Positions 13,536 through 48,346 are shown, numbered from the stretch's first letter. The stretch is 64,000 bases of DNA from Candidatus Heimdallarchaeum aukensis (GCA_021513695.1 CP084166.1:448001-512000); one strand, 5' to 3'. Translations and numbers: made by a program. The notes: a model not told the origin generated them from the letters alone.

Positions 13536-16505
13536 ATGAAAATAAAATCCATGAAATATAAAAAATATTTTTTCTTTGTACTTTTCACGGTCTTAGTTGT
13601 ATTCGCTTATCCACGAAGCTTTTACAACGAAGTTGAAGCAGGATATACACAAACAACTCCTATCAACATATATTCTGATTCAGACTTAGAAAGTTATTCA
13701 TTTCCTGGTACAGGAACTGAAGCTGACCCTTATATTATAGAAAATTATAACATCACAGTTACTAGTGGTTATGCTATTTCAATTAGAGCAACAACAAAAT
13801 ATGTCATTATAAGAAATAACTATATTATAGGGTCTGATACTGGCAATGGAATGTACATTTTTAGTGTTGCACCAAACACTGTTCATATAATAAATAACAC
13901 CGTTGTCAATGCTTATACTGGAATTTATGTAAATACTGAAGGACAAATGATAATAGAGAATAATACTGTAACAGGAGGAGAGTCTGCCTATTATTTCTCT
14001 TCAACTGGAAATATTAATTTTACTAACAATAAGGCAATCAATCCTAAAAAATATGGTTTAAGAGCTTATAATTTAAATAACTTCAGAATGGCTAATAGTA
14101 CTTTAATAGGCGCTGGAGTAGGTTTTTCTACAAGTAGTACATCCTTTTATGATAATTACTATTTTGATAACAATTCAATTAATAACAAGCCTTTGATGGT
14201 AGTTTATTCTTCATCAGATCTTGTTTTTGACAAAAATCAAAATGGTCAGATATTAATTATAGACAGCACGAACATCACAGTCAAAAATTATGTCTCAAGC
14301 GAAAATACTTTTGGAGTTTATTCCTACTATTCTGATAAAATAACAATAGAGGATAGTTTTTTTTCAAAAGCAGTTTCTTCAATTAAAGCAGAATATTCTT
14401 CAAATATTGAAATAAAGAATGTAAAAATTAGTAACACATACGAGTATGGAATGAATATTCGCAATATAGATGGAATTTCGATTGAAGATACTATAGTTGA
14501 AGATTCTAATAAAGGGATATATGCAAGAGGAATAAATAATTTAGAAATAACAAATACTACTTCCACTAATCATGAAAATGATGGCTTGTACCTGTGGTAT
14601 GTAAATAATGCAAATATTTCTAGTTCGTTTTTCGCAAATTGTAAGAACGGATTAGTTGCAAGAAGTTCAACTAACATAAGATTAGAAGAAAACTCAGCTT
14701 CAAACTGTAGTTATACAAGTTTTACTCTAATTTATCTTGAGAATGTAACAGTAAAAGATAACTTAATGGAATCTGGGATAAAACTTAACCATTACAACGT
14801 TGAATGGAGCTACGAATTCAGTAATAATACAATAAAAGGAAAACCTTTAGGTGTTTTTTATAATAAAACAGGGTTAACTATTGACTCAACTTATTCGCAA
14901 TTAATACTAGTAAATTGTACAGACTTTATAATCAATAATGCGTATTTTTCTCAAGTAGTAAGAGGAATTTACATTCTTTACGGAGAAAATATTTCTATAA
15001 ATAATATCTCGATGTACAACGTCTTTGAAGGTGGACTATTAGTAGAGTATTCCAAGAAAATAAGCATTCAAGATTTAAATGTAAATGGAGTAATAGGTAA
15101 TGAAGCTTATGGTATTTACACTTATAATGTAACTTCGGTGTTTCTTAATCATTCTATTTTTACACTGTGCGGAGATTATCCTTTTTATGGAGAAGAGATT
15201 GCAGATGCTATAATTTCTTATAATATATTTAATAATAGCACTAATAATGTGTTTTACATTTACAATGGCTTTAATCTTTCTATTTTTGGAAATGATTTTT
15301 TGTTTAATGATTATGCACTTTATGTTGAATTTTCAAACGAAATAGAATTCTACAACCTTGAATTAGAAATGGGAAATTGTTACTCTGAATGGAACGGTTC
15401 AACTAGATATCCTATTGAAACAGATAGTGGCTACATTTATGATGAATTTCCATTAAATGATACTGACAGAGATAAGCTTAACGACAGTTTAGAAGTGTAT
15501 AGTTACAATACTGACCCATTTCTTGCAGATACAGATTACGATATACTCAGTGATTATGACGAAATAATGAACTATGGAACTGACCCAAACTCGGTAGATT
15601 CAGATAATGATAATATGCCAGACAAATGGGAAATAGAAAATAATCTTAACCCAATCGAAGATGACTCCTCAGAAGATCCTGACGATGATGATTTGTCTAA
15701 CATAGAAGAATATAATTCACACACCAATCCCAATTCTGCTGATACAGATTCTGATGGTATGCCTGATGGTTGGGAAGTGGAAAATGAATTAAATCCTTTG
15801 ATAGATGATGCTGATGAAGACCCAGATAATGATGATCTAACTAATTTAGAAGAATACTCTAATAATACTGACCCTAACTCTGCAGATACAGATTCTGACG
15901 GTATGCCTGACAAATGGGAGGTAGATAATAATCTTGACCCAACTAAAGATGATGCTGATGAAGACCCAGATAATGATGATCTAACTAATTTAGAAGAATA
16001 CACTAACAACACAGACCCTAACACCAATGACACAGATGGTGATGGTATGTTTGATGGTTGGGAAGTAGATAATAGTCTTGATCCTCTAACTGATGATGCT
16101 GATGAAGATCCTGATAATGATGGACTAACAAATCTAGAAGAACATACAAACAATACTAACCCAAATGATGAAGATACGGATTCAGATGGTATGCCTGATG
16201 GATGGGAAGTGGAAAATGGATTAAATCCTCTGATAGATGATGCTGAGGAAGACCCAGATAATGATAGATTAACTAACATACAAGAATACTTGAATAACAC
16301 AGATCCCAACAATCCAGATACTGATGGAGATGGATATTCAGACTCTGAAGAAATAGAGAAAGGCTCTAACCCTACCGATGCTACAGATAAACCTCTTAAT
16401 TTGGGATTGATTCTTGGTTTATCCATTGGTATTCCAACTGTTCTTATTGCAGTCTTCTTATTTATAATGAAGAAAAAAGGTTTACTCTTCTTTAAGAAGA
16501 AGTAA
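13536..16505 (+). CDS. cell-surface protein: signal peptide, right-handed parallel beta-helix repeats, ~6 thrombospondin-type-3-like Asp-rich Ca-binding repeats, C-terminal TM anchor
   Basis: N-terminal hydrophobic signal. Repeated NNT(V/I)…N…GIY beta-helix (PbH1-like) units. Tandem D-T-D-S-D-G-M-P-D-G-W-E…DPDNDDLTNLEEY units. C-terminal GLILGLSIGIPTVLIAVFLFIMKKK. Confidence 0.7.
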   Translation: MKIKSMKYKKYFFFVLFTVLVVFAYPRSFYNEVEAGYTQTTPINIYSDSDLESYSFPGTGTEADPYIIENYNITVTSGYAISIRATTKYVIIRNNYIIGSDTGNGMYIFSVAPNTVHIINNTVVNAYTGIYVNTEGQMIIENNTVTGGESAYYFSSTGNINFTNNKAINPKKYGLRAYNLNNFRMANSTLIGAGVGFSTSSTSFYDNYYFDNNSINNKPLMVVYSSSDLVFDKNQNGQILIIDSTNITVKNYVSSENTFGVYSYYSDKITIEDSFFSKAVSSIKAEYSSNIEIKNVKISNTYEYGMNIRNIDGISIEDTIVEDSNKGIYARGINNLEITNTTSTNHENDGLYLWYVNNANISSSFFANCKNGLVARSSTNIRLEENSASNCSYTSFTLIYLENVTVKDNLMESGIKLNHYNVEWSYEFSNNTIKGKPLGVFYNKTGLTIDSTYSQLILVNCTDFIINNAYFSQVVRGIYILYGENISINNISMYNVFEGGLLVEYSKKISIQDLNVNGVIGNEAYGIYTYNVTSVFLNHSIFTLCGDYPFYGEEIADAIISYNIFNNSTNNVFYIYNGFNLSIFGNDFLFNDYALYVEFSNEIEFYNLELEMGNCYSEWNGSTRYPIETDSGYIYDEFPLNDTDRDKLNDSLEVYSYNTDPFLADTDYDILSDYDEIMNYGTDPNSVDSDNDNMPDKWEIENNLNPIEDDSSEDPDDDDLSNIEEYNSHTNPNSADTDSDGMPDGWEVENELNPLIDDADEDPDNDDLTNLEEYSNNTDPNSADTDSDGMPDKWEVDNNLDPTKDDADEDPDNDDLTNLEEYTNNTDPNTNDTDGDGMFDGWEVDNSLDPLTDDADEDPDNDGLTNLEEHTNNTNPNDEDTDSDGMPDGWEVENGLNPLIDDAEEDPDNDRLTNIQEYLNNTDPNNPDTDGDGYSDSEEIEKGSNPTDATDKPLNLGLILGLSIGIPTVLIAVFLFIMKKKGLLFFKKK
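15470..16360 (+). repeat. intragenic tandem repeats (~140-150 bp units) encoding TSP3-like Asp-rich modules
   Basis: Near-identical stretches, e.g. gatgatgctgatgaagacccagataatgatgatctaactaatttagaagaatac at ~15808 and ~15950. Confidence 0.6.
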
Positions 16506-24111: not shown

Positions 24112-25629
24112 ATGAATTTGCTAAAAACTGTAGTAAAAATAACTCCTGTCTCAATATTGCGTAAAGTTCAATCATTTTCACTAAAAAAACCTAGCAGAAT
24201 TAAATTTTTATTCAAAGTTTCTAATGAAGAAGCTTTAGTCGAGATAGGAAAAAAACTGGCTTATAATAATTTCAAAAAAGTATCAAAGAATACACCCGCT
24301 TACAAGAAGTTCTTGGAGAGTAATGGAGTCAATGCAAAGAAAGTTAATAGCTTTGAAAAATTTATTGAAATTGTTCCTACAACAGACAAAAACAACTATA
24401 TTGCTAAATATCCGATGGATGAACTCTGTATCAACGGAGACCTTTCTCCACTAGCAATAATTGACAGAAGCTCAGGATATTCGGGTAAATCCATTTACTT
24501 TCCGATATCCAAAAAAGAAAACCTCTTTGATGAACTAGTAATGGCAAATTGGTTTAAAACACAATTCAATATCTCAACTAAAGATTTACTCATAAATTGT
24601 TTCTTTTTAGGTTCATGGGTAGCAGGAATAAAGATAGGAAACTCAGCTAGAATGATAGGAACTACAATAAATACAGGACCTCGTTTAGATGAAATTGTAG
24701 AAACAATATTCGATCTCGATAGATACTATGAAAGAATAATTATTTTATCCTATCCGCCCTTTGCAATGATGCTTGTTTACAAACTAATAGAAGCAGGATA
24801 TGACTTTGAAGGTAAAAACTTCTTGTTTTTGGTAGGAGGAGAAGGATATAATCTGGAGTTCAAACAAAAATTGCAAGAACTTACAAAAAACAGTAGCGAA
24901 ATTTTTGGAGCTTTTGGTAGTACTGAAACAGGAATAAGAATCGGAAATGAAACAGCTGATACACACATGCTTAAACAAATGGCTGCATCAAACAAGGAAT
25001 TCTGCAAGAAAATGTTTGGAAAAGAATTCCCACCAAATATCTTTCAATATGACCCAACAAATGTTCATTTATTCACAAAGAAATATAAAAACGGAAAAGA
25101 CGCTCTGGTTTTCACTTCAGCATCTAAAAGAGCAGTTCCTGTAATTAAATATAACCTAAAAGATGAAGGAGGAGTACTAACACAAAAAGAAGTAAAGAAA
25201 ATAATAAAAGAAGTATTTAACATGGATTTCAATTTTAAACTACCTTTACCAATCTTTTATGTTTATGGAAGAGTAGATGATACAATATCCATAGCAAGTG
25301 CAATATTCTATCCTCATCAAATAAAATCAGGACTGTTGGAGTTCATGGATAATGTAATAGATTACAGATTGGAATCAAAAACAACAGATACAGGAGTAAT
25401 CTATCCTGCAGTTCATGTAGCGGTAAAAGATAAAAGAAAAGCTTCCAAAAAGAAAATAGAAGAAAGTATTTACAAAACGTTACTAAAATACAGTAGCACC
25501 TACTCAGAATCAATAAAAGAAGGAATTGCAGATAGACCTATAGTTTTCCTATACACAGAAAAAGACTTCCCTTTTGAACTAAACGAAATAACAAAAAATC
25601 AAGTAAAAGAAAAACATTTAGTAAATTAA
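24112..25629 (+). CDS. adenylate-forming enzyme, phenylacetate-CoA ligase / F390-synthetase (PaaK-like) family
   Basis: RSSGYSGKSIYFP resembles the (S/T)SG(T/S)(T/S)GKP P-loop of PaaK-like ANL enzymes. Size ~500 aa. Confidence 0.45.
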   Translation: MNLLKTVVKITPVSILRKVQSFSLKKPSRIKFLFKVSNEEALVEIGKKLAYNNFKKVSKNTPAYKKFLESNGVNAKKVNSFEKFIEIVPTTDKNNYIAKYPMDELCINGDLSPLAIIDRSSGYSGKSIYFPISKKENLFDELVMANWFKTQFNISTKDLLINCFFLGSWVAGIKIGNSARMIGTTINTGPRLDEIVETIFDLDRYYERIIILSYPPFAMMLVYKLIEAGYDFEGKNFLFLVGGEGYNLEFKQKLQELTKNSSEIFGAFGSTETGIRIGNETADTHMLKQMAASNKEFCKKMFGKEFPPNIFQYDPTNVHLFTKKYKNGKDALVFTSASKRAVPVIKYNLKDEGGVLTQKEVKKIIKEVFNMDFNFKLPLPIFYVYGRVDDTISIASAIFYPHQIKSGLLEFMDNVIDYRLESKTTDTGVIYPAVHVAVKDKRKASKKKIEESIYKTLLKYSSTYSESIKEGIADRPIVFLYTEKDFPFELNEITKNQVKEKHLVN

Positions 25630-25795: not shown

Positions 25796-28700
25796 TTATT
25801 CTTTCTTCTTACCTTCACCTATAATTTCCCAATCACGATATTGGCTAAGTAAACGGTCAATCTCATTATCAATATCAATAGTTTCTTTTCTTACAAAAGA
25901 TTGCTCAAGTTCATAATATTCACCAATATCAGGGTTAGCTTGTAGGATATCTTTGAGATACTCTTCAACAACAGATTTAGAAAGACCGCTAAGTTCAGAA
26001 ATTCGTTGCAAAGTAACAGAAATATTAGGTTTGAATTGGTTAAGCAAGTTAATGAGAGTTTTATAATCTTCTTCTCTCTTCAATGCTTTCATGTACTCAG
26101 ATTTAGTTTTATAGCCTTGAGCAGAGATTTCTTCCCACTCAGACTTAGTTTTAAAACCTAACTTCATTGCTGTATACATTTCTTTGATAGAAGAAAAACC
26201 AAAAGAAGAAGCTCTTTTACGAAGATAAAGTCTAATTCCTATAAAAGTCAAAAAAGCAACAGCACCAGTAACAATGACAGCACCTGTAACTATTGAAATA
26301 ATTGTGAGTATTCTTTTAACTTTCAATTTGTGTTCTAAATTCGATTTAGGATTGAGAGGATCAAAACCGTTTTCTATTTCTTTACCATCATTTTCTCCAT
26401 CTCCATCAGTGTCAGAATTGTTAGGGTCTGTTCTATAAATCTTTACTTCTTCATAATCAGTTAATCCATCACTATCAGAATCACTACTTGTGGGGTTAGT
26501 AAAATATTCTTTAATCTCTTCATAATCAGTTAATCCATCATTATCTGTATCAGTACTATTAGCAAACGTACCAACATTAAATTCTTCAAGATTGGTTAAA
26601 CCATCACCGTCTAAATCAGAGTTGGAATCATCTGTTAATGGGTCTAATCCAGAATGAACTTCATAACCATCAGGCATACCATCTTCGTCAGTGTCAGAGT
26701 TGTTAGCGAAAGTGCCAAGAGTATATTCCTCAAAATTAGATAAATTATCGTTATCGAAATCAGAATTACTATCATTAACAATTGCGTTTGTACCTGTTTG
26801 AACTTCCCACAAATCATCCATCAAGTCACCATCAGTATCAGTACTATTAGCAAACGTACCAACATTAAATTCTTCAAGATTGGTTAAACCATCACCGTCT
26901 AAATCAGAGTTGGAATCATCTGTTAATGGGTCTAATCCAGAATGAACTTCATAACCATCAGGCATACCATCTTCGTCAGTGTCAGAGTTGTTAGCGAAAG
27001 TGCCAAGAGTATATTCCTCAAAATTAGATAAATTATCGTTATCGAAATCAGAATTACTATCATTAACAATTGCGTTTGTACCTGTTTGAACTTCCCACAA
27101 ATCATCCATCAAGTCACCATCAGTATCAGTACTATTAGCAAACGTACCAACATTAAATTCTTCAAGATTGGTTAAACCATCACCGTCTAAATCAGAGTTG
27201 GAATCATCTGTTAATGGGTCTAATCCAGAATGAACTTCATAACCATCAGGCATACCATCTTCGTCAGTGTCAGAAACCAAAGGATCAGTACCGTAAGTGT
27301 TAACCTCTTCTCCATCAGTTAAACCATCACTGTCAGTGTTAGAAGTAGTAGGATCAGTTGAATAAACATTGATTTCACTAAAATCATCTAATCCATCACT
27401 ATCAGTATCAGAAGTAGTAGGATCAGTTGAATAATTTACTACTTCATCAAAATCATCCAATCCATCACTGTCAGTATCAACCTTACTCATATCTGTCCCT
27501 AAAATCTCCTCCTCATGGTCAAACAATCCATCATTATCAGTATCTAAATATTCCCCTGTCCTTTGATTGTTAACCGAATCAGTATAGAGTGGAGCATATC
27601 CAAGGCCAATAGAATTCCAAATAGATACTCCCATGTTGGAAACATCACCGTACCCGGCAAGTATTTCTAAGGAAGAATCGTTATCGACATCAGCAACAGC
27701 TAAAGACCAAAAAGTACCACTTGTCGTTTTTGGCCAACCAGGAACAACAGTACCATCACTATTCCAAATAACCACTCCACCACCAAAGTCAATACGATAC
27801 CCGGCAATTATCTCAAGTGCTGAATCGTTATCGACATCTGCAATAGTTAAAGAATGAACTTCACCACTTGTTTCACTTGTTGTTTGTGGCCAACCAGGAA
27901 CAACAGTACCATCACTATTCCAAATAATTACGCCACCACTGTAGTATTCACCGTACCCAGCAATTATTTCTAATGTTGAATCATCATCAACATCTGCAAC
28001 AGCTAAAGAATAAACATAACCACTTGTTGTTTTTGGCCAACCAGCAACAACACTACCATCACTATTCCAAATAACTACTCCACCACCATATCCTGCAATT
28101 ATTTCTAATGTTAAATCATCATCAACATCTGCAACAGCTAAAGAACGAACATCATCACTTGTTTTTGGCCAACCAGGAACAACAGTACCATCACTATTCC
28201 AAATAATTACTCCACCACCATATCCTGCAATTATTTCTAATGTTGAATCATCATCAACATCTGCAACAGCTAAAGAATAAACATAACCACTTGTTGTTTT
28301 TGGCCAACCAGCAACAACACTACCATCACTATTCCAAATAACTACTCCACCATAACCAGCATCACGATATCCTGCAATTATTTCTAGTTCTGAATCACCA
28401 TCAACATCAGCAAGAGCTAAAGAATAAACATAACCACTTGTTGTTTTTGGCCAACCAGCAACAACACTACCATCACTATTCCAAATAACTACTCCACCAT
28501 CATCAACATATCCTCCTCCTGCGACTATCTCGAGTTTTAAATCACCATCAACATCAGCAAGAGCTAAAGAATAAACATCTCCGCTTGTAGTTTTAGGCCA
28601 ACCAGGAATAACAGTACCATCACTATTCCAAATAACTACTCCACCATAATACCCTGCAAGTATTTCTAGTTCTGAATCACCGTCCACATCTCCAACAGCT

Positions 28701-30244
28701 AAAGAATAAACATAACCGCTTGTAGTTTTTGACCAAGAAAATAAAGTTGAATAATAATTAATAAAAGAGTTATAGCGACTGTTACTTGTATTATAGTTAG
28801 TTGTTTTCCAATCAAAAACATTATCACAGCTAATTTGAGCAGCTAAAATATAACCATAATAATCTGAATAGTATAAATATTTGCCTTGAATAGTAATTAT
28901 TCTGTTTAAATATAAATAACCTGATAATATTGCTTCATTCGTGGATGAAGAATAAAAATGCTTTGCATAAACATTTGAAGAGGAACAATATAGTAATTCC
29001 CAATTATAATCATTGTCCACATCGGTAAGTATAGGTTCTTCTTGAATATTTAGACCTAAGGAACTACTATACTCATTTAATATCTCTCCGGTGAAAGAAA
29101 AACTTTTTTGTTCTCCGTTTGTTGATAGAGTAACTATTTCATACTCTCTATCCCAATTAATATCAACAATTATAGGACCTAACCACTCTGAATCACCTGA
29201 AGAAGTAAGCCAAGAATGAATAGTAGTACCATTATTTGATAAAAGATAAAGATTTCTTCCTGCAGGGCAAACAATGTCTATTTTACTGTCTTTGTTGATG
29301 TCTGCAACTGCAAGAGGATGAGTAATAGGCTCTGTTAAATCTTTAGGAAAATTTGAGATGATGTCTCCATTTCCTTTCCACGCGTAAACTTTTCCATCGG
29401 TACTACCTACAATAACATCTTTGGAACCATCATTGTCTACATCAGCTAAAACTGGTGCAACTATTACTTCTCCTCCTGTTGTTTTAGGCCAACCAGCTAA
29501 AAGATTTCCACTTCCATCAAATGCATAAACTTTTGAACTGTTAGATCCAACCACTATCTCATTTTTATCGTCTCCATTAATATCTCCAACTGCTAATGTT
29601 TCTTCTACTGGTCCCTCACAATTGACTGGCCAACCTGGTATACTAGTACCATCACCGTAAAATGCGTAAACCGAACCATTAGCTGCTCCTATAATTATTT
29701 CTTCAGTTGCACTATTTCCATCTATATTAGCTAACATTGGTGTAGATATTAAAGCAACACCTATGTTTTTTCCATCTATCCAATTTGAAGATTCTGTACC
29801 ATCTATCTCGTAAACTCTTATTATGCCATTTAACGTTCCTACAACAATTTCATAATTTCCATCTCCGTCTATATCCCCTGCTCCAGGTCCTCCTTTTAAC
29901 TCTCCCCCTACATATATTGGCCAACTACCAAAAGAATTGAGAGATTGAGAGATTTTTTTACCTGAAAAATTGTTATCTAAAAGTTCAGAACGGGAAGAAG
30001 TTGTTTTGATCTCTATGTCGTTGTTCGCTTCTTCAACTCTTTGTAAATCTGTGTGATAATCATTATTTTGACTTACATTATTTTGACTTACATTACTTTG
30101 TTGTGAATCTAAAATGATATTATTAAAATCTTTCATCACTAGAGAATTTGTAGTCATTGAACTTGTAATTATAATTAGTAATGCTACTACCATTCCTGAA
30201 TATTTTGATTTCCCTCTAAAACTTTTTTTTATTCGTTTCATCAT
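25796..30244 (-). CDS. giant integrin-like surface protein: signal peptide, FG-GAP/beta-propeller repeats, TSP3-like Asp-rich Ca-binding repeats, single TM helix, ~150-aa cytoplasmic tail
   Basis: Repeated …ADVDGD(S/L)xLEIIAGY…GGVVIWNSDG(T/S)VVPGWPKTTSG… FG-GAP-like units. Repeated DTDSDGL(D/T)D…E modules. TM ILTIISIVTGAVIVTGAVAFLTFIGI followed by a basic/charged tail. Confidence 0.7.
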   Translation of the reverse strand: MMKRIKKSFRGKSKYSGMVVALLIIITSSMTTNSLVMKDFNNIILDSQQSNVSQNNVSQNNDYHTDLQRVEEANNDIEIKTTSSRSELLDNNFSGKKISQSLNSFGSWPIYVGGELKGGPGAGDIDGDGNYEIVVGTLNGIIRVYEIDGTESSNWIDGKNIGVALISTPMLANIDGNSATEEIIIGAANGSVYAFYGDGTSIPGWPVNCEGPVEETLAVGDINGDDKNEIVVGSNSSKVYAFDGSGNLLAGWPKTTGGEVIVAPVLADVDNDGSKDVIVGSTDGKVYAWKGNGDIISNFPKDLTEPITHPLAVADINKDSKIDIVCPAGRNLYLLSNNGTTIHSWLTSSGDSEWLGPIIVDINWDREYEIVTLSTNGEQKSFSFTGEILNEYSSSLGLNIQEEPILTDVDNDYNWELLYCSSSNVYAKHFYSSSTNEAILSGYLYLNRIITIQGKYLYYSDYYGYILAAQISCDNVFDWKTTNYNTSNSRYNSFINYYSTLFSWSKTTSGYVYSLAVGDVDGDSELEILAGYYGGVVIWNSDGTVIPGWPKTTSGDVYSLALADVDGDLKLEIVAGGGYVDDGGVVIWNSDGSVVAGWPKTTSGYVYSLALADVDGDSELEIIAGYRDAGYGGVVIWNSDGSVVAGWPKTTSGYVYSLAVADVDDDSTLEIIAGYGGGVIIWNSDGTVVPGWPKTSDDVRSLAVADVDDDLTLEIIAGYGGGVVIWNSDGSVVAGWPKTTSGYVYSLAVADVDDDSTLEIIAGYGEYYSGGVIIWNSDGTVVPGWPQTTSETSGEVHSLTIADVDNDSALEIIAGYRIDFGGGVVIWNSDGTVVPGWPKTTSGTFWSLAVADVDNDSSLEILAGYGDVSNMGVSIWNSIGLGYAPLYTDSVNNQRTGEYLDTDNDGLFDHEEEILGTDMSKVDTDSDGLDDFDEVVNYSTDPTTSDTDSDGLDDFSEINVYSTDPTTSNTDSDGLTDGEEVNTYGTDPLVSDTDEDGMPDGYEVHSGLDPLTDDSNSDLDGDGLTNLEEFNVGTFANSTDTDGDLMDDLWEVQTGTNAIVNDSNSDFDNDNLSNFEEYTLGTFANNSDTDEDGMPDGYEVHSGLDPLTDDSNSDLDGDGLTNLEEFNVGTFANSTDTDGDLMDDLWEVQTGTNAIVNDSNSDFDNDNLSNFEEYTLGTFANNSDTDEDGMPDGYEVHSGLDPLTDDSNSDLDGDGLTNLEEFNVGTFANSTDTDNDGLTDYEEIKEYFTNPTSSDSDSDGLTDYEEVKIYRTDPNNSDTDGDGENDGKEIENGFDPLNPKSNLEHKLKVKRILTIISIVTGAVIVTGAVAFLTFIGIRLYLRKRASSFGFSSIKEMYTAMKLGFKTKSEWEEISAQGYKTKSEYMKALKREEDYKTLINLLNQFKPNISVTLQRISELSGLSKSVVEEYLKDILQANPDIGEYYELEQSFVRKETIDIDNEIDRLLSQYRDWEIIGEGKKKE
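26551..27270. repeat. near-perfect tandem repeat, 288-bp unit x ~2.5 copies, inside the integrin-like gene
   Basis: Units begin at 26551, 26839 and 27127 (cagtactattagcaaacgtaccaacattaaattcttcaag…) and are identical over hundreds of bp. Encodes 96-aa repeat DTDEDGMPDGYEVHSGLDPLTDDSNSDLDGDGLTNLEEFNVGTFANSTDTDGDLMDDLWEVQTGTNAIVNDSNSDFDNDNLSNFEEYTLGTFANNS. Confidence 0.9.
27700..28760. repeat. degenerate tandem repeats (~135-160 bp) encoding FG-GAP-like blades
   Basis: Recurring ggccaaccag(g/c)aa(c/t)aaca(g/c)taccatcactattccaaataa(c/t)(c/t)actccacc at ~27728, 27888, 28031, 28170, 28303, 28441, 28597. Confidence 0.7.
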
Positions 30245-30491: not shown

Positions 30492-31616
30492 ATGATTTCT
30501 TATTACTCTATAGGTTTATTCTTATTTGAGCAACTTACTTTTATTACTAGCAGCATTATTTTGTTTAGAACTTACAAGCAGACTCGCTTTCTTTCTCACT
30601 TCCTTTTGGGTACTAGCTATCTTTTGTGGGTTTTCAATTCTATAGGAAGATTCATTACTTCTTTTTTCAGTGAAAATGTAATAATCTTCGACAATACTCG
30701 ACTTATTTCACTTATTTGGATCATTGTTAACTGTTTGTTAATTCTTGGAATGATTTTCGTTTTCTATTCTTTTATTTATTTCAAGACTAACAGATTACAT
30801 CCTATAATAAACATAGTTAGTTTTTTAGGAGGAGCATTATTTCTTGCATTTATAATACCTGATTTCACTGAATTGACTTACTCTGAACAACTTGGAGCTT
30901 GGTCTGCGAAATATAGTATTTGGATATCTGTTCTTGTTATTCCAATGCTTTTATTCTTCATTTTTTCTTTTATTCTTCCCATTTCTACAAAAATTGTTAG
31001 AACTACTGACAAAGATATTCGTAAGCAACTATTTGTGCAGATAGTCGGACTTATTATCGTAATTATCTGGGCATTTTTCGCTGGTTTTACTAGCAATGCT
31101 GTTCTTCGAGCTGTTCGTCCTTTCCTTATGGCAACAGGCTGGTTTATCTGGTCTTTAACTTTGATAATGGATCCTTTCAACATAATGATTTCTAACGCTA
31201 AAATTAGTCAATTATTGATTACAACTACTAGCGGTTTACCAATCTATTATGATGACTTCACTTTTGATGAAAAAGAAGTAAAAAGTGAGATTTCTGCAGA
31301 TCTAGCTTCAGGTTTAATTTCAGGAGTTACCCAAGCTCTAGAGCAAATAATGGAAAGAAAATCGGAATTAAACACTGTAGTATATAAAGACAAAGTTATA
31401 GGTACTACTGCAGTAGGCTATCTTCAAGCATATATTTTTGGAGAAAGATTTGATAAAACTTTAGAAACTGTATTAAATGTTCTTCTAAGAGAAATACAAG
31501 ATAATCCAGCTCTTGCTTTAAAAATCACTCCCAACTTTGTAGATCTAGATGGGGCTTCAGGAAAAATCTTGAAACTCATAGTTGAAAAAAATCTAAAGAG
31601 AATATTAGTAATTTAA
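30492..31616 (+). CDS. membrane protein (N-terminal ~7 TM helices) with C-terminal soluble domain, unknown function
   Basis: Hydrophobic N-terminal two-thirds. C-terminal ~130 aa predicted soluble (…GLISGVTQALEQIMERKSELNTVVYKDKVIGTTAVGYLQAYIF…). Confidence 0.4.
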   Translation: MISYYSIGLFLFEQLTFITSSIILFRTYKQTRFLSHFLLGTSYLLWVFNSIGRFITSFFSENVIIFDNTRLISLIWIIVNCLLILGMIFVFYSFIYFKTNRLHPIINIVSFLGGALFLAFIIPDFTELTYSEQLGAWSAKYSIWISVLVIPMLLFFIFSFILPISTKIVRTTDKDIRKQLFVQIVGLIIVIIWAFFAGFTSNAVLRAVRPFLMATGWFIWSLTLIMDPFNIMISNAKISQLLITTTSGLPIYYDDFTFDEKEVKSEISADLASGLISGVTQALEQIMERKSELNTVVYKDKVIGTTAVGYLQAYIFGERFDKTLETVLNVLLREIQDNPALALKITPNFVDLDGASGKILKLIVEKNLKRILVI

Positions 31617-31774: not shown

Positions 31775-32503
31775 ATGATTGCACCAACTATTGATTCTTT
31801 ATGGTCTGCAGCTTTGGGATATTTTTTTGGTTCAATACCCTTATCTTTTATAATCGTCAAAGTTTTTCTTGACGGGTTAGATATTCGAACAGTTGGATCA
31901 AAAAATGTCGGTGGAAGAAATGTTATTAGATCTTTCAAGTATAAAGGAAAGTCAAATAATGTTGCTTATACTATGGGGTTAATTGTAGCTATCTTTGATA
32001 TATTGAAAGGATACTTTGCTATGTGGCTGTCACAGTATCTATCTTACAATTTTGGAAATAATGACCCTTGGAGCATTTGCTTTGCAGGTATTTTTGCTAT
32101 ACTTGGACATAATTGGCCAATATGGTTATTAAGTCATGGTGGAAGAGGAGTAGCAACAACTCTTGGTAATTTGATGTTTTTCAATCCTATCTTCTTTTTA
32201 ATATGGCTAGCAACGTTTTTCTTACTCAGTTTTCCTCTTATGTATTCAGCTATCGTTTACATCACTAGTTTTATAGTTATGGGAGTTATTCTATACTTCT
32301 GGCCCTGGTATGTAAGTCCGATGGTAACAGAACTGAAAAACGACCCCAATCTAGGTTTTTTATCAATGATAATGCTTTTCGGTATAACTCTTGTTGTTCT
32401 TTCGCGTCAAAAATCTAATTTCATGAAAATAAAGAATGGTGAAGCAAAAAGAATGAAATTATGGAAAATATTCCAAGGAAAGGCAGATGAAGCCTTAAAA
32501 TAA
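31775..32503 (+). CDS. plsY: glycerol-3-phosphate acyltransferase PlsY-like (acyl-phosphate:G3P acyltransferase family)
   Basis: GYFFGSIPLSFII…DIRTVGSKNVGGRNVIRSF matches the bacterial PlsY N-terminal signature (…CGSIS…DPRTSGSGNPGATNVLR…). ILKGYFAMW matches VLKG…W. AILGHNWPIWL…GGRGVATTLG matches LGHIWP…GGKGVAT. Confidence 0.7.
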   Translation: MIAPTIDSLWSAALGYFFGSIPLSFIIVKVFLDGLDIRTVGSKNVGGRNVIRSFKYKGKSNNVAYTMGLIVAIFDILKGYFAMWLSQYLSYNFGNNDPWSICFAGIFAILGHNWPIWLLSHGGRGVATTLGNLMFFNPIFFLIWLATFFLLSFPLMYSAIVYITSFIVMGVILYFWPWYVSPMVTELKNDPNLGFLSMIMLFGITLVVLSRQKSNFMKIKNGEAKRMKLWKIFQGKADEALK

Positions 32504-32541: not shown

Positions 32542-33288
32542 CTATTTTAGTTCTATTAATTCAGAGGATTCTATTTCTAGCGAAAGAGTCTCTTTTTCAT
32601 TTTGTATCTTTAAAAGTCCATTATCCTCAATTCCTTCTACTGTATATTCTTGATTTTTGTAGATAATATTATTTTTGCACAATATATCATAAGAATTAAA
32701 TTCCTTCAAGATTTCTTTAAGATTGTTTTTTAGAACCTTGATAATATAGTTTTTAATTTGCTTATGCAATTCTTTTGTTAATTTCTCATTATCTACTTTT
32801 ATTTTCAAGGATTCATTTATTGAAATAGCTATAGAATTGACTGGAGAGTCTAAAGAAAGAACTTTGTTATTTGTATTTATTCCTATTCCAACGAGTAGAA
32901 AATTACAATTTGTATCTTTCACTGTATCAATTAAAATTCCGCCTAACTTTCTTTTTTCTAGAATTATATCATTTGGCCATTTAATTTTAACAGGTATAGA
33001 CAGAATTGTTTCTATTGCTTTTCTTACTCCTAAAGCAATAGAATAATGAAGAAAAGCATATTGTTTTTGATTTATTTCTTCTTTTTTACAAAAAACAAAC
33101 GTTCCCCACCAACCTCCTTTTGGAGAAAACCATTTACTCTGTTTTCTTCCAATACTTGCAGATTGTTCCTCTGCTATTATTAACAAATCTTCATTTTTTG
33201 CTAATTCTAAATAAGACAAAGCTACATTTTGAGTGGAAGGAACAGATTGAAAATGAATGATTTTCAAGGAAAAGGATTCTTGAGCCAT
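32542..33288 (-). CDS. birA: biotin--protein ligase (BirA catalytic domain, no HTH)
   Basis: SIGRKQSKWFSPKGG (GRxGRxWxSPxG biotinyl-AMP loop) and KWPNDI motif. Confidence 0.75.
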   Translation of the reverse strand: MAQESFSLKIIHFQSVPSTQNVALSYLELAKNEDLLIIAEEQSASIGRKQSKWFSPKGGWWGTFVFCKKEEINQKQYAFLHYSIALGVRKAIETILSIPVKIKWPNDIILEKRKLGGILIDTVKDTNCNFLLVGIGINTNNKVLSLDSPVNSIAISINESLKIKVDNEKLTKELHKQIKNYIIKVLKNNLKEILKEFNSYDILCKNNIIYKNQEYTVEGIEDNGLLKIQNEKETLSLEIESSELIELK

Positions 33289-33401
33289 TATTTTCGTCGA
33301 AAAACACTTTTATTTAAACTTTTTTTTGTTTTATCAAGATAAAATTATTTAATCATAAAAACAAATTGGGTTTTTAAAAGACCTTTTTTTCTTTAAACTT
33401 A

Positions 33402-34976
33402 ATGGCTCGTATTACTCATATTGGACATGATAAAGGAATTTTGGAAGAAAAAAGACAAACAATACTTTCACTAAGAGAAAAGTCTCTAAAAGGTGGGGGA
33501 GAGGAAAAAATAGCCAGTCAACACAATAAAGGAAAGCTTACTGCGAGAGAGAGAATAGAATTATTGGTTGACGAAAATTCTTTTTGCGAAATAGATCAAA
33601 TAAGAAAATCTCAACATTCTGAATTAGAAATGGAAAAAATAGAAGGAGACGGTGTAGTAACAGGTTATGCAACTATTAATGGTAGACGAGTCTTTATTTA
33701 TAGTCAAGATTTTACCGTTTTGGGAGGAAGTTTAGGAAAAACTCACGCAAAAAAAATTTGTAAAGTTATGGATCTTGCTCTTCAGAGTGGGTGTCCTATA
33801 ATAGGGTTACTTGACTCTGGAGGAGCAAGAATTCAAGAAGGAATAGATTCTCTAGCTGGTTATGGTGAAATATTTTATAGAAATGTAATGAGTTCAGGGG
33901 TAATTCCCCAAGTTTCTATTATTTTGGGTCCTTGTGCTGGAGGAGCGGTCTATTCTCCTGCCCTAACTGATTTTATTATTATGAATCAAATTAATTCATT
34001 TATGTTTGTTACTGGCCCTCAAGTTGTTAAGACAGTTACCGGTGAAGATGTTTCATTCTATGATTTAGGAGGAAGTGAAGTACATAGTTCACTTAGCGGA
34101 GTAAGTCATTTAGTAGGAGAAGATGAAGAGGAAACGATAAATTTAGCTAAGAGACTCTTATCTTACCTTCCATCGAACAATTTAGATGACCCTCCACAAG
34201 AAATAGATGATATCGAAGAAAATGATCAAGATATTCTTTCTGATATTATTCCTGAGCAGGAAAATGAACCTTATGATATGAAAAAAGTAGTTGAAACAGT
34301 TTTAGACCAAGACAGTTTCTTTGAATTACAAGAAAATTGGGCAAAAAACATTATTGTTGGTTTCGGAAGATTAGAAGGTTTAACTGTCGGTATTATTGCA
34401 AACCAACCTTTATTTCTTGGAGGAGCTATAGAATATAATGCTGCGGATAAAGCAGCAAGATTTATTCGTTTTTGTGATTCATTTAACATCCCTATAATTA
34501 CTTTTGTTGATGTACCTGGTTTTATGCCAGGATTAAAACAAGAGGAAGAAGGAATAATTCGTCATGGAGCTAAAATGCTTTTTGCTTATTCAGAAGCTAC
34601 TGTCCCAAAACTTGCAGTAATAACAAGAAAAGCTTATGGAGGAGCTTATATTGTTATGAGCTCAAAGCATTTAGGAGCTGATATTAATTTTGCTTGGCCT
34701 ACAGCAGAAATAGCTGTCATGGGGGCAGAGGGAGCTTGTAATATTATTTATAGAAAAGAACTGAAAAAAGCTGAAAATCCAGAACAAGCTTTGCAAGATT
34801 TTGTTGTAAAATACAAAAAACAGTTCAGCAATCCTATTCGAGCAGCTGAGAAAGGATATGTTGACAAAGTTATTTTGCCTGAAGAAACAAGAATTGAACT
34901 TTCTAATGCCTTGAAATTTTTACAAAATAAAAGGATAGATACCCCGAAAAGAAAACACGGGAATATTCCACTTTAA
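33402..34976 (+). CDS. acyl-CoA carboxylase carboxyltransferase subunit (PccB/AccD family; alternatively the alpha subunit of a biotin-dependent decarboxylase/transcarboxylase)
   Basis: Full-length two-domain carboxyltransferase pattern (…GGSLGKTHAKKICKVMDLA…, …GPCAGGAVYSPALTDF…, …AYGGAYIVMSSKHLGAD…). Confidence 0.85.
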   Translation: MARITHIGHDKGILEEKRQTILSLREKSLKGGGEEKIASQHNKGKLTARERIELLVDENSFCEIDQIRKSQHSELEMEKIEGDGVVTGYATINGRRVFIYSQDFTVLGGSLGKTHAKKICKVMDLALQSGCPIIGLLDSGGARIQEGIDSLAGYGEIFYRNVMSSGVIPQVSIILGPCAGGAVYSPALTDFIIMNQINSFMFVTGPQVVKTVTGEDVSFYDLGGSEVHSSLSGVSHLVGEDEEETINLAKRLLSYLPSNNLDDPPQEIDDIEENDQDILSDIIPEQENEPYDMKKVVETVLDQDSFFELQENWAKNIIVGFGRLEGLTVGIIANQPLFLGGAIEYNAADKAARFIRFCDSFNIPIITFVDVPGFMPGLKQEEEGIIRHGAKMLFAYSEATVPKLAVITRKAYGGAYIVMSSKHLGADINFAWPTAEIAVMGAEGACNIIYRKELKKAENPEQALQDFVVKYKKQFSNPIRAAEKGYVDKVILPEETRIELSNALKFLQNKRIDTPKRKHGNIPL

Positions 34977-34997
34977 AATTATTAAGAGGAGAATTTT

Positions 34998-37900
34998 ATG
35001 AAAACTCTAAAAGAACTAAAAAATGAACTACAAATTAAATATCCAATTTTTGGATATAATCCTATCGGACTTGCTGATCCCACGTTAGCTATTGAAATCT
35101 CCAAACTTGGAGGAGTGGGATTAATTAACACTATTGGACTTGAACAAGAAGAACTAACTAAGATTCTTGATCAATGCGAACTTAATCTACCCACACAACT
35201 ATGGGGAATAAGGATTAACGATCTTTCTCACATTAAATGGATTAATCATGAACGAAGTATTCCAATCGTTATCCTACCGGAGAAACCTACAAGATTACAA
35301 CTGGATAAACTGCGTAAAATAAGTAAATTTATTGTCGCTGAAGTTTTATTTGTTGAAGAAGCAAAAAGTCATCTTGAATGGTCAGATTTCTTTTTAGTTA
35401 AAGGTATTGAAGCAGGAGGAAAAGTTGGTACAAAAGCTTCTTTTATTCAGATTCAAGAGTTTTATGAAACTGGATGGCCTTTTATCATTCAAGGAGGAAT
35501 GGGTGCTTTTAATATTAGTTCTGCTCTAATAGGAGGAGCAATAGGAGTAGTTTTTGAGGGACAATTATATCAATTTCCTGAATGTCCTCTTTCTGAAGAA
35601 GCGAAAAAGTATCTTGCTTCTTTAGGTGAAAATGATTCTTTCATTATCAATGAAAGTGGTAAAGAAGGTTACAGAATTTCTGGAAAACTAGCTAACAAAG
35701 CAATTAGAGAAATAAAACAACTAGAAGAAGAATCAAGTGAGGAAAAAATACTTGATAGAATTACTGAATTTGAAAAACCTCACGATCAATTTGGTTTTAA
35801 GAGTCAGAACATTAAACACGCATTTTTACCACTAGGTAACGATGTTTTCTTCTCCACATTCTTCAAGAAAAGATTTGGAAATTTAACAAATTTTGTGGAG
35901 CAAGCTCTTAAGATAGCTGATGAACAAATACAGATTGCTCTAAGAAATTGGCCTTTTGCAAAAGGTTCTACTTTATCCAACTTTCTAGGTACAAAATATC
36001 CTATTATTCAAGGCCCTATGGCTAATGTTTCTGATAATGTAGACTTTGCTATTAATGTAGCGAAAAATGGAGCTCTTCCTTTCTTAGCTTTGGGTGGATT
36101 ACTAAAAGAAGAAACTGAGGAGCTTTTTGATAAAGTTAGAGAAAGTGAACTTGTAAAATATTCCTATGGTTGTGGGATTATAGGTTTAGAAGCAGTTAAA
36201 CAAAGGAGAGAAGAGCACCTTTCTTTAATGAGAGATCTTAAACCTCCCTTTGCTTTGATTGCTGCTGGAACAGTTAATTTAGCTAAACAAGTACAAGAAA
36301 TGGGTTTTAAGACTTTATTACACACTCCCGCTCTATCAATGTTTAAAGATTCTATCAAAAATGGAATAGATTTACAAATTTTAGAAGGGAGTGAATGTGG
36401 AGGACATATTGGACTTCTTTCATCTTTTATTTTATGGGAAAGTATTTTGGAATTTTTAGATGAAAATAGAGAACAGATAGAAAAACCTTTGAAAATAGCT
36501 TTTGCAGGAGGGATATCTGACGGCACTAGTTCTGCGATGCTAGCAGTTATGATTGCTAAACATCTAGATATTATAGAATCAGCAATACAGATGGGTACAT
36601 CCTACTTATTTACTGAAGAGATTCTAGAAACAAAGGCTTTAACTGGATTTTATCAAGAACTTCTTCTTAATTCTAACTACACCAGAATTATAGGCTCAAC
36701 AGTAAATACTCGAGCACGAGCTGCTCCTTCACCTTTTGTAGATCAAACAATTAAAAGAGAAAGAGAGAGAATTAGACAAAAAATACCAATAAAAGAAAGA
36801 AAAGAACTTTACGAGAAAGATAATCTAGGAGCTTTAAGAATTGCAGCTAAAGCTGAAAAATGGAATAACGATCATGTTCCTGGTACTGCAACTACACAGT
36901 TTATAAAAATCGATGAAGAGGAACAGAAAAACTTTGGTTGCTTTATGGCTGGAGAAGTAATAGCAAAGAAACGTAGTATTTACAAGATAGATGACCTACA
37001 CTATGATATTTCAGTAATTGGAAAAGAAATCTTAGAAAAGCAATCAACTTCTATTGCTGATTATTTACTTTCAAAAGAAAAACTAGAAGCTTATGTTTCT
37101 AAAGAACAAAGTCCTCTAGTTATAGATAGTACTAATAAAATTGCTATAGTAGGAATAGGTAGTTTCTTCCCTGATGCTCCAAACACAGAAAAATTCTGGG
37201 AAAATATTGTTAACAAACATTATGCTGTAACTGAAGTACCTATTGAAAGATGGGATCCTAAATATTATTATGACGAAGATCGAACCGCTCCAGACAAGAC
37301 TTATACCAAAATTGGAGCGTTTGTAAAAGAATTTAAATTTAAACCTATTCAATTCAAGATTCCTCCTAAAGTAGCTGAAAAGATGGATGAAGTTCAGAAA
37401 TGGTCATTAATTGCTGCAAAAGAAGCTTTAGAAGATGCTGGAATACCCACAGATGGCAAGAAACGCCTACCTATAGGAGTAATTGTAGGCAATGCTTTAG
37501 GTGGAGAAAATCAGAGAATTACTAACAGGAGATTACACTATCCAGAAATTGAAGAACAACTAAAAATTTTATTAAGCTCAAAATTGTCTGATGAGGAAGT
37601 AGAAAAGTTTGTTTCTTCTTTCAAGAAAGAATATCTCAGTAAATACGCAGAGATTACAGAGGATACTATGCCTGGAGAATTATCTAATGTTGTTGCGGGA
37701 AGAATAGCCAATATATTCAATTTATCTGGTAAATCAATGACAACAGATGCTGCATGTGCTTCTTCTCTTGCTGCTCTGGACATTGCGGTAAAAAGTTTGT
37801 TGAATAACGATTTTGATACTATTCTTGTTGGCGGAGCAGATAGATCTATGGATGTTTCTTCTTATGTTAAATTCAGTAAGATCGGTGCTCTTTCTGCAAC

Positions 37901-39518: not shown

Positions 39519-41378
39519 CAGGAGATTACACTATCCAGAAATTGAAGAACAACTAAAAATTTTATTAAGCTCAAAATTGTCTGATGAGGAAGTAGAAAAG
39601 TTTGTTTCTTCTTTCAAGAAAGAATATCTCAGTAAATACGCAGAGATTACAGAGGATACTATGCCTGGAGAATTATCTAATGTTGTTGCGGGAAGAATAG
39701 CCAATATATTCAATTTATCTGGTAAATCAATGACAACAGATGCTGCATGTGCTTCTTCTCTTGCTGCTCTGGACATTGCGGTAAAAAGTTTGTTGAATAA
39801 CGATTTTGATACTATTCTTGTTGGCGGAGCAGATAGATCTATGGATGTTTCTTCTTATGTTAAATTCAGTAAGATCGGTGCTCTTTCTGCAACTGGTTCT
39901 CGACCTTTTGATTCCAAGGCAGACGGTTTTGTAATGGGAGAAGGATGTGGTTTTCTTGTCTTGAAGAAATTGAAAAAAGCTATTGAAGACAATGACAAAA
40001 TTTATGCCATAATTGATTCTGTTGGTTCTTCCTCTGATGGTAAAGGAAAAGGAATTACTGCTCCTAATCCTTTAGGACAAAAAGAAGCTATTGAAAGAGC
40101 TCTTGAACAAGCTAAAGTTTCTCCTTCTGAGATAGATTTAATTGAAGCACATGGAACTTCCACCATAGTAGGAGATAAAACAGAAGTTCAAGTTTTAAAT
40201 GAGATTTTCACAGAAAAACAAAAAGAAAGAAAAAGGAAAATAGCTCTTGGTTCAATTAAAAGCCAAATTGGTCATTTAAAGAGCGCAGCAGGTATAGCTT
40301 CTGTTATAAAAGTAGCTTTAGCTCTTGACAAGAAAATTCTTCCACCAACGATAAATGTTCAAGAACTTAATCCTGCGATTGATTGGAATAATTCTAATCT
40401 TTTTGTTAATCTTGATGCTCAACCATGGGAAAAGGTTGATAACTCTATCAGAAGAGCAGGAGTTTCTGCTTTTGGTTTTGGAGGAACAAATTATCATACA
40501 ATCTTGGAAGAATATATTCCAGAAGCACAGTACATAGAAAAAGAAAAGCAACCAATAGTTGAACTAAAAGAACAAAAAGAAGAAGTTTGCTTCCTTTATA
40601 CTGGACAAGGAAGTCAATATTTAGGCATGATAAAGGAACTTTATGATAATTATCCAACTGTTAGAAAAACAATAGATGAAGCTTCAGTTATTGCTAAAGA
40701 GAGTTTAAATGCTGATTTGCGTGAAATAATTTTTGGTTCACCTCAACTTTCCAAAGTTGAAAATGAGGAAAGATTAAGACAAACAGAATACACTCAACCT
40801 TCTCTCTTTGTAGTCGAAGTTGCTTTAACTAGATTATTGAAAGAAAAAGGAATTGAGCCTACAAGAGTAGCTGGACATAGTTTAGGAGAATATACTGCTT
40901 TAGTTGCTGCGGGAGTGTTCTCTTTTGAAGATGGATTAAAAGCTGTAATAGAAAGAGGAAAAGCGATGGCAAAAGCTTCTAAAAGTATCCCTGGAGCAAT
41001 GGCAGCTATTCTTACATCTCAAGAAAAAGTTAAGGAAATTATAGAAAAGGTAAATGAAGGTTATATAACAGTAGCCAATTATAACTCATTAAACCAAACA
41101 GTGATTTCGGGAGAAGAAAAAGCTGTAAACAAAGCTATAGAACTTTTCTCTGCAAGAAAAATAAAAGCAATAAAATTAAATGTTTCAACAGCTTTTCATT
41201 CTATTATTGTTAAAGATGCAGAAATAGAAATGGAGAGAGTGCTTAACAGCCTGACTTACAATAAACCTTCAATTCCTGTCTATTCAAATGTAACGGGAAG
41301 TTTGTACCCTGACAAACCCTCTAAAATTAAAGAACTTCTAATTAATCAGCTCTGTAATTCTGTTCAATGGGTTAAGAT
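37393..41378. repeat. perfect direct tandem duplication, 2 x 1993 bp (copy A 37393-39385, copy B 39386-41378) covering most of KS1 and all of AT
   Basis: Identical sequence at an offset of 1993 nt throughout. Duplicate antisense ORFs appear at 37538/39531, 38325/40318, 38362/40355, 38455/40448. 1993 mod 3 = 1. Deleting one copy restores one continuous ~3,515-aa reading frame (34998..47538 minus 1993). Confidence 0.95.
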
Positions 41379-48334: not shown

Positions 48335-48346
48335 ATAACTTATGGA

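Follow-up and report, generated by a model that had tools for sequence, protein, structure and literature searches.

Introduction

β-Propellers of the FG-GAP/VCBS type are common in prokaryotes, as an analysis of the VCBS superfamily (Pereira & Lupas 2021, PMC8023676) and a study of bacterial integrin-type propellers (Chouhan et al. 2011, PMC3192720) describe. The surface proteins built from them have blades with calcium-type DxDxDG loops and an extracellular location. Here we analyse a gene of this kind, located on the minus strand at 25796..30244 of a 64,000-nucleotide stretch assigned to Candidatus Heimdallarchaeum aukensis (GCA_021513695.1, CP084166.1:448001-512000; called the window hereafter), whose product combines two propellers with a stalk of TSP3 repeats, a C-terminal transmembrane (TM) helix and a conserved winged-helix (WH) tail, whereas most FG-GAP relatives in the databases carry proteases, beta-helices or sorting domains of the T9SS (type IX secretion system) or FlgD type instead. 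Inside the stalk, a 288-bp unit is repeated 2.5 times without a single mismatch, and the number of units differs from that of the sister genome.

Two further groups of proteins serve as reference for the stalk. The bacterial TSP3 proteins (PF18884; MtsD and CglD of Myxococcus in NCBIfam) share with the window protein the tandem Asp-rich DxDxDGxxDxxE motifs, which in the latter are organized in a higher-order unit of 48/96 amino acids (aa). In the repeat-region adhesins of staphylococci and streptococci and in the Alp/Rib family, the stalk repeats vary in length in frame through unequal recombination. The integrin alpha chains are considered below together with the propellers, the architecture having been called integrin-like in a first-pass annotation of the window.

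Domain organization

The gene is an open reading frame (ORF) of 1482 aa with an ATG start, supported also by its Pfam matches and by a syntenic ortholog at 2407..6552 of locus L005 in Ca. Heimdallarchaeum endolithica PR6, whose genome is complete. Its product contains, in this order, a signal or anchor segment, a linker, two FG-GAP/VCBS propellers, the TSP3 stalk, the TM helix and the cytoplasmic tail. We propose that it is probably a single-pass, type I-like surface protein of a Heimdallarchaeum-type Asgard archaeon. In the model, the two propellers would form an outward-facing binding head, which might serve in surface adhesion or ligand binding; the long Ca2+-binding TSP3 region, with its length-changing array, would be a membrane-proximal stalk or spacer, and the TM helix would link this ectodomain to basic GF-repeats and an acidic winged helix in the cytoplasm.

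The protein is a member of the FG-GAP/VCBS beta-propeller superfamily. The FG-GAP-type blades noticed in the first-pass annotation were accepted by profile search, with 89.1 bits for FG-GAP_3 (PF13517; cut-off 26.9) over 10 stretches and 23.3 bits for FG-GAP (PF01839; cut-off 22.1). Propeller 1 (28745..29929, minus strand; aa 106-500; best Pfam stretch, aa 221-279) has seven blades with DxDxDG-type FG-GAP motifs, five of them counted by regular expression and two, near aa 271 and 317, by eye. Propeller 2 (27590..28744, minus strand; aa 501-885) has eight blade motifs, each blade being 44-52 aa long with the pattern IWNSDG..GWPKT..SLAVADVDxDxxLEIIAG; Tandem Repeats Finder (TRF) detects it with a period of 147, 5.7 copies and 84% matches, and it accounts for repeat families D2-D4. 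The DNA of the eight blades is 71-92% identical in the identity matrix, a sign of recent blade amplification of the kind seen in other prokaryotic FG-GAP/VCBS surface proteins. In an AlphaFold2 model of aa 101-1300, the ectodomain prediction gave two confident all-beta regions corresponding to the propellers (predicted local distance difference test, pLDDT, 82-96; about 85-93 in propeller 2).

The architecture had been called integrin-like. The name holds at the level of the propeller superfamily and of the topology, since an FG-GAP propeller head, a type I orientation and a cytoplasmic tail, for which adaptor binding seems plausible here, are also features of integrin alpha. It does not hold further: the 1482-aa protein has no match to the thigh and calf legs (Integrin_alpha2, PF08441) at E≤0.1 in Pfam; the residues that follow the TM helix, RLYLRKRASSFGFSS, contain no GFFKR motif and start a tail of 145 aa; a second propeller is present, and TSP3 repeats take the place of the legs. 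A beta partner is not known, and neither of the two neighbouring genes looked at as possible beta-subunit partners (374 and 505 aa) matches a Pfam family. FG-GAP repeats, Ca-binding loops, a single TM helix, a cytoplasmic tail and an Asgard host could suggest that the protein is a true homolog, or even an ancestor, of integrin alpha. This is highly improbable, the more so as its closest homologs outside the orthologs come from bacteria and archaea and join FG-GAP repeats to proteases, beta-helices and the like, and such propellers are widespread in prokaryotes (PMC3192720, PMC8023676). When the ectodomain model of 1200 aa was compared with the Protein Data Bank (PDB) by Foldseek, only generic tandem propellers (Utp, DDB1, Gemin5) were retrieved, which are uninformative on integrin affinity.

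Hydropathy reveals just two hydrophobic segments, aa 17-37 and aa 1312-1337, the latter followed by the 145-aa tail. The first belongs to an N-terminal stretch (30134..30244, minus strand; aa 1-37) in which seven Lys or Arg residues precede the hydrophobic run and Kyte-Doolittle windows exceed 1.6 at aa 17-19; judged from its sequence, it would be a Sec signal peptide or else an anchor at the N-terminus. The second is the TM helix (26234..26311, minus strand), modelled by AlphaFold2 as a long helix with a pLDDT of about 90 and followed directly by RLYLRKR, in agreement with the positive-inside rule. The receptor-like topology predicted earlier is borne out by this C-terminal helix, by the length of the tail and by basic residues on the cytoplasmic sides of both hydrophobic segments. 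A folded tail of 145 aa rules out an archaeosortase-type C-terminal sorting signal. Between the N-terminal segment and propeller 1, a low-complexity linker contains a 15-bp in-frame microrepeat (30061..30100, minus strand; TRF) that encodes a 5-aa unit of Q, N, V and S. A look-up did not find the exact record of the 1482-aa protein.

The 288-bp array and its variation

The array (26547..27275, minus strand) occupies 729 bp and reads A-B-A-B-A, that is, 2.53 units with 0 mismatches in a base-by-base comparison of position i with i+288. The comparison yields 441 consecutive identities (26547..26987), and TRF reports a period of 288 with 2.5 copies and 99% matches at 26543-27274. These limits lie a few bases from the 26551-27270 first given for a 288-bp unit repeated 2.5 times without divergence, a description that stands. 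So perfect an array cannot be due to chance. Within each unit, an older duplication is visible as an A and a B half of 144 bp, 62% identical to each other; the unit encodes 96 aa, as two half-units of 48 aa with two DxDxD-type Ca-binding motifs each. The A halves are placed at aa 992, 1088 and 1184, and the B halves at aa 1040 and 1136.

Searched with the tail, the GTDB species representatives yielded only two loci, L005 and L006, both in the PR6 genome (CP084167.1), which belongs to the sister species of Ca. H. aukensis at 88% average nucleotide identity (Wu et al. 2022, PMC8813620). Of the two, L005 is the syntenic ortholog; it encodes 1381 aa and has flanking genes of equal size (374, 505, 432 and 635 aa), and 12.5 kb of the window aligns to it in two blocks at 89% nucleotide (nt) identity, comprising most of the gene, and 93%. 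L006, about 97 kb from L005, is a paralog of 1455 aa whose tail is 76% identical in protein sequence. The archaeal host assumed at first is confirmed by this ortholog and by the closest database proteins, labelled Candidatus Heimdallarchaeaceae, and the conserved chromosomal synteny rules out a mobile-element origin. The remaining complete gene compared is L001 (P0001, GCA_054387635.1), of 1206 aa, which has different neighbours; there is therefore no conserved operon partner. The genes that flank the window gene, at 24112-25629 (plus strand, 505 aa) and 30492-31616 (plus strand, 374 aa), are conserved in PR6; the 374-aa product is mostly hydrophobic.

The arrays of the four genes differ in number and homogeneity of units. 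Against the 2.5 units of the window, whose copies are 100% identical, the PR6 ortholog has 1.5 units (A-B-A) with A copies 99.3% identical, and the alignment of the two proteins shows an exact in-frame indel of 96 aa. L001 likewise has 1.5 units (A-B-A), with A copies 99.3% identical (one difference in 153 nt). The paralog L006 has 2.5 units that are 87% identical overall: A2 and A3 are 97.9% identical, A1 is about 80% identical to both, and B1 and B2 are 80.6% identical. A base-by-base check of the boundaries in the window and in L001 showed that the identity run has the same first codon in both genes and the same partial copy of 153 nt at its end. Leaving aside A1 of L006, at about 80%, A copies are 98-100% identical within a gene and 73-80% identical between paralogous or more distant genes. 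Because of this contrast the array appears to be old and to have been kept homogeneous, and the simplest reading of the sequences is that A-B-A is ancestral to the gene family, the flanking A copies having been homogenized by concerted evolution. In the window, B1 equals B2, whereas 5 of 144 positions separate window B from that of PR6 (96.5% identical). Hence, the extra B-A unit arose, or was homogenized for the last time, after the two lineages split. The very recent expansion seen in the first-pass annotation thus applies to this extra unit, with its B half 3.5% off that of PR6, and not to the A-B-A architecture, which is present in all four complete genes and is old. We count the anatomy of the protein, the copy-number difference between genomes and the concerted evolution as demonstrated.

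A mechanism can be proposed for this behaviour. The flanking 153-bp A copies would be held near-identical by gene conversion, and unequal homologous recombination or replication slippage between them would gain or lose whole B-A units. In the window this would have given one B-A unit more than in the PR6 ortholog, lengthening the stalk by 96 aa and adding four DxDxD-type motifs with the frame kept; in total, 26 DxDxD motifs are found in the window protein and 19 in the PR6 ortholog.

Other parts of the gene vary in length as well. The 15-bp linker repeat is present in 2.7 copies in the window and in 3.7 perfect copies in the PR6 ortholog (L005 2551-2605), which appears as a 5-aa indel in the alignment and constitutes a second length polymorphism. 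The blade loops carry small indels, and the more distant homolog P0001 has about three blades fewer in the alignment. Moreover, near-perfect 69-bp repeats, encoding the 23-aa TSP3 motif, occur in homologs with 96-100% matches and 2.1-2.8 copies (L001 12295-12442, L005 5223-5373, L006 4851-5045); since these repeats of the proximal stalk are independent, several repeat tiers of the gene family seem to expand or homogenize separately. Metagenome scans with a 31-nt exact pattern of the A unit and with peptide patterns of the tail gave no match. In the description of the two genomes by Wu et al. (PMC8813620), integrin and FG-GAP are not mentioned and intragenic tandem repeats are touched on in passing.

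Perfect tandem repeats within a surface-protein gene could also indicate a contingency locus subject to on/off phase variation or to antigenic variation. Frameshift-type phase variation, a possibility that had been raised for this locus, is excluded because the 288-bp and 15-bp units are both multiples of three, so that copy changes preserve the frame and only length can vary; indeed, both variants found between the genomes are in frame. In addition, the repeat sits in the membrane-proximal stalk and not in the exposed head. A contingency locus of either type is therefore very hard to credit.

The proposed TSP3 stalk as a shared module

The Ca-type Asp repeats described as TSP3-like are recognized by TSP3_bac (PF18884) with 53.7 bits (cut-off 25). 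Besides the array, they form a proximal stalk of 23-aa (69-bp) DxDxDGxxDxxE repeats (27276..27589, minus strand; TRF period 69, 2.3 copies) and a distal, membrane-adjacent stretch (26330..26546, minus strand), both matched by TSP3_bac. Membership of the MtsD or CglD equivalogs is ruled out, since the repeat region, the only part matched, reaches 76 bits with MtsD (cut-off 800) and 58 bits with CglD (cut-off 400).

The comparison with the repeats of a second surface protein of the window, suggested in the first-pass annotation, revealed the same 48-aa half-unit. This protein (13536..16505, plus strand) has a signal peptide, a right-handed beta-helix/NosD head, TSP3 half-units, a TM helix and a short basic KKK tail. 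Its five diverged half-units (period 144/288 bp, 73-75% nt identity) are placed immediately before the TM anchor and are 44-50% identical in aa sequence to the half-unit of the array; the WH tail is not shared. Relatives with WD40-propeller or beta-helix heads keep the head-TSP3-TM order too. Because the module is shared by proteins with different heads and precedes the TM helix, it is likely to act as spacer or stalk, and an added unit would lengthen that stalk. Its stiffening would depend on Ca2+, and stalk length could have a functional effect.

With the adhesin stalks the array has in common long, near-identical, in-frame repeats between head and anchor, a copy number that differs among close relatives, and concerted evolution. 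It differs from them in its archaeal host, in the use of Ca-binding TSP3 units in place of Ig-like or Rib domains, and in being followed by a TM helix and a cytoplasmic domain and not by a cell-wall anchor. By analogy, the behaviour of the repeats matches the recombination-driven, in-frame length variation of adhesin stalks and not phase variation.

Divergence along the gene

The window gene and its PR6 ortholog were compared by region, nt identity being obtained from a codon alignment and from BLAST, which differ where indels occur, and the ratio of nonsynonymous to synonymous rates (dN/dS) from the codon alignment. The lowest ratios are found in the tail and the A-B-A array, both with 98% identity by either method and a dN/dS of 0.08, and strong purifying selection acts on the tail. 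The TM helix is 98% identical by either method, and dS is 0 so that dN/dS is not computable. Intermediate ratios are found in propeller 1 (92% by both methods; 0.34), in the proximal TSP3 repeats (86% by both; 0.34) and in the distal TSP3 repeats (94% by codon alignment, 96% by BLAST; 0.36). The N-terminus and linker give 98.7% by codon alignment, 94% by BLAST and a ratio of 0.74. Propeller 2 is the most diverged and fastest-evolving part of the gene (82% and 76%, respectively; dN/dS 0.55, dN 0.175). That the fastest divergence is found in the outer propeller fits an exposed interaction surface.

These values bear on the possibility that the protein is a structural component of the envelope, a spacer or anchor of a cell-surface layer whose tail would merely anchor it to a cytoplasmic scaffold. 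Other proteins do combine the same TSP3 stalk and TM helix with different heads, and the window protein is rich in Asp, Gly and Ser, has 21 N-x-S/T sequons and contains no signalling enzyme domain in Pfam. The rapid evolution of propeller 2 (dN 0.175, 76-82% nt identity), however, fits an interaction surface better than a lattice protein, and the presence in each genome of two or more paralogs, whose heads differ across the wider family, points in the same direction. We consider an envelope component unlikely, and favour a surface protein with a binding head.

Copy number and assembly

Several points weigh against the proposed reading. The N-terminal segment may be an uncleaved anchor and not a signal peptide. 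The TSP3 region has no confident AlphaFold2 structure (pLDDT 23-45), and therefore the term stalk is drawn from position and analogy; such low values are expected of repeats that depend on Ca2+. The surface location and the binding of a ligand and a partner are predictions from sequence and models, and a change of one unit in length may be selectively neutral. Finally, the count of 2.5 units in the window is that given by the assembly, related short-read contigs are misassembled at the array, and Ca. H. aukensis was assembled with SPAdes from 150-bp Illumina reads, Nanopore reads being used for scaffolding only (PMC8813620).

The last point leads to the alternative that the locus really contains 1.5 units, or yet another number, and that the assembler walked the de Bruijn loop a wrong number of times, in which case there would be no biological difference in copy number. 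A perfect 729-bp repeat with a 288-bp period exceeds the length of short reads, from which the candidate source genome was built, and another near-perfect repeat, a tandem duplication of 2.7 kb, occurs in the window at 46995-52389. The array had been pointed out as a possible hotspot of assembly collapse, and in relatives this proved correct: L002 and L003, both from metagenome 3300033149, are frameshifted exactly at the array, where out-of-frame junctions split the homologous genes (L002 7200-8174, L003 3400-4870) into three ORFs with the tail intact and conserved downstream. These splits are probably misassemblies and less likely pseudogenes. Of the partial proteins, P0004 and P0005 end in the first A unit, and P0003 reaches into the next B unit by a few residues; P0003 and P0005 stop at out-of-frame junctions and not at contig ends. 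Because related contigs are garbled in this way, the copy number of the window needs read support.

The window array is, in contrast to those contigs, exactly periodic and in frame. A natural 2.5-unit architecture exists in the PR6 paralog, with units 13% diverged and hence neither collapsible nor inflatable. Moreover, PR6 was assembled from Nanopore reads with Canu (PMC8813620), so that at least the 1.5-unit state is real. An artefact in the window is accordingly a minority possibility, about as doubtful as the envelope component, and we retain a genuine gain of one unit as the better account. In any case the array is an assembly trap, and copy numbers and gene calls of this family in short-read metagenome-assembled genomes (MAGs) are not to be trusted.

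Fragments that contain the tail alone were also recovered, P0121 on a contig of 995 bp and P0122 on one of 594 bp. An ENA contig, L004 (1-995), encodes the last residues of the TM helix and a tail 91% identical to that of the window. Its upstream part is unrelated and lacks a TSP3 region; either the contig is chimeric or this copy of the gene is truncated.

The cytoplasmic tail

The tail had been estimated at about 150 aa with a short segment resembling a winged helix-turn-helix (wHTH). It measures 145 aa, and a winged helix is indeed the predicted fold. AlphaFold2 models aa 1300-1482 with a mean pLDDT of 86 as the long TM helix, three short helices, a canonical winged helix (H-b-H-H-b-b) and a C-terminal helix. 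The three short helices correspond to three repeats of about 15 aa, G[FY]x[ST]xxE[YWM] (26069..26203, minus strand; aa 1348-1392), with a net charge of +6. The winged helix and C-terminal helix (25799..26068, minus strand; aa 1393-1482) have a net charge of -6 and the signatures P.I.V.L.RI..L...E..LK.I....P.IGEY.ELEQ.F(I/V)R and ID.LL..Y..WE..GEGKKK, respectively.

A winged helix behind a TM segment could suggest a membrane-tethered one-component transcription regulator of the ToxR/CadC type, whose ectodomain would sense a ligand and whose winged helix would bind DNA. Pfam finds no family in the tail, and specifically no DNA-binding wHTH family at E≤0.01, and the WH part is acidic; a DNA-binding role seems unlikely for these reasons. 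The best Foldseek matches of the winged helix are PCI-type, protein-binding winged helices of CSN2 and Rpn subunits, although they are weak (E 2.7e-3 or weaker, with low TM-scores) and Pfam detects no PCI domain; among PDB sequences the WH profile had no significant match. Furthermore, in 22 of 108 relatives a RING finger follows the winged helix, a protein-modifying context. A regulator of this type is thus improbable. Most likely, the tail docks a cytoplasmic protein partner rather than DNA.

A phmmer search with the tail against 1.84 billion representatives found 119 proteins at E≤1e-3, 15 of them at E≤1e-10. On this basis we define the Heimdall-group 'GEYLELEQVFIR' WH tail family by the WH signature P.I.V.L.RI...IGEY.ELEQ.FIR, usually C-terminal and often placed after G[FY]x[ST]xxE[YW] repeats; the window tail has these features. 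An alignment of 12 diverse members (A3) contains five invariant columns, V17, R21, G48, E54 and Q55, and in some relatives the GF repeat forms long arrays with up to about 12 copies as counted by regular expression. The module is found after the TM helix in proteins with FG-GAP + TSP3, beta-helix or WD40 + TSP3 ectodomains and in multi-pass proteins; small and apparently soluble proteins and one protein with N-terminal leucine-rich repeats (LRR) contain it as well. Among the 108 members scanned with Pfam, zf-RING_2 was found in 22, TSP3_bac in 10, LRR_8 in 8 and WD40 in 5, and members with a RING show the order winged helix, zinc ribbon, RING-H2. This unit occurs in soluble, LRR-containing, helical-repeat and multi-pass proteins (P0129, P0133, P0137, P0142, P0145, P0160, P0162, P0165, P0148 and P0169). 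Nine members, in eight clusters, bear the name of an organism: eight are from Heimdallarchaeota, Heimdallarchaeaceae or Hodarchaeales and one is from a 'Zixibacteria' MAG. A local hidden Markov model found the module only once within the window, and a word-indexed search with the WH profile returned seven unnamed fragments. No description of the WH-RING module was found in the literature searched, which does not prove that none exists. The tail therefore belongs to a wider, undescribed family, apparently found mainly in Heimdall-group archaea.

A speculative extension, to which we give about one chance in four, starts from the position of the module: GF-repeats and winged helix lie behind single-pass receptors with eukaryote-like ectodomains (FG-GAP, WD40 and beta-helix heads, most of them on TSP3 stalks), and immediately ahead of zinc ribbon and RING-H2 fingers in soluble, LRR-containing and multi-pass relatives. 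They would then be part of an archaeal system that spans the membrane, in which docking between winged helices or by the C-terminal helix connects binding at the surface with a RING/ubiquitin-type machinery in the cytoplasm, stalk length being tuned by gain and loss of repeats. Such a system would be analogous to the eukaryotic ectodomain-TM-RING ligases and adaptor-binding adhesion receptors, or possibly even a forerunner of them. The PA-TM-RING ligases, and the membrane-anchored helix + WH adaptors such as DDRGK1/UFBP1, offer a resemblance and not a membership, with no detectable sequence similarity; DDRGK1 is anchored by its N-terminus, and the window protein itself has no RING.

Other features of the window

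The window has a G+C content of 30.9%, and scans for tRNA and Rfam families gave no match. The near-perfect tandem duplication of about 2.7 kb consists of copy 1 (46995-49691) and copy 2 (49691-52389), which differ by two 1-bp indels only; it covers the phosphopantetheinyl transferase (PPTase) end of a megasynthase, an alpha/beta hydrolase (two ORFs of 253 aa that score the same in Pfam) and a biotin-carrier protein (163 versus 157 aa). Either the segment was duplicated very recently or the second copy is an artefact of assembly.

A bacterial-type acyl-lipid gene cluster lies at 32542-47538 (and 31775-32503) in this Heimdallarchaeum-like genome. It includes a biotin ligase (32542-33288, minus strand), an acyl-CoA carboxyltransferase (33402-34976), a 1506-aa enoyl-reductase-like/ketosynthase (KS)/acyltransferase (AT) protein (34998-39518) and a 2653-aa protein (39577-47538) with two KS matches, an AT, three acyl carrier protein matches, a ketoreductase, a dehydratase and a PPTase. 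The cluster resembles a polyunsaturated fatty acid synthase or a polyketide synthase, and bears on the ester-lipid capacity of Asgard archaea. PlsY, a glycerol-3-phosphate acyltransferase, adjoins the surface-protein gene.

Implications

FG-GAP propellers and bacterial-type TSP3 repeats make this a protein of an already known kind, both being common in prokaryotic surface proteins (PMC3192720, PMC8023676). New are the Asgard host, the documented difference between sister genomes, the concerted evolution across paralogs and the conserved WH tail, tied to a RING-rich family. The locus provides a testable case in which stalk length differs between sister genomes by way of an identifiable recombination substrate, and the conserved cytoplasmic module links many membrane proteins of the lineage to RING-finger proteins. 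Should a ubiquitin-type ligase or some other adaptor prove to be recruited by the tail, the protein would constitute a receptor-like, outside-in link in an Asgard archaeon.

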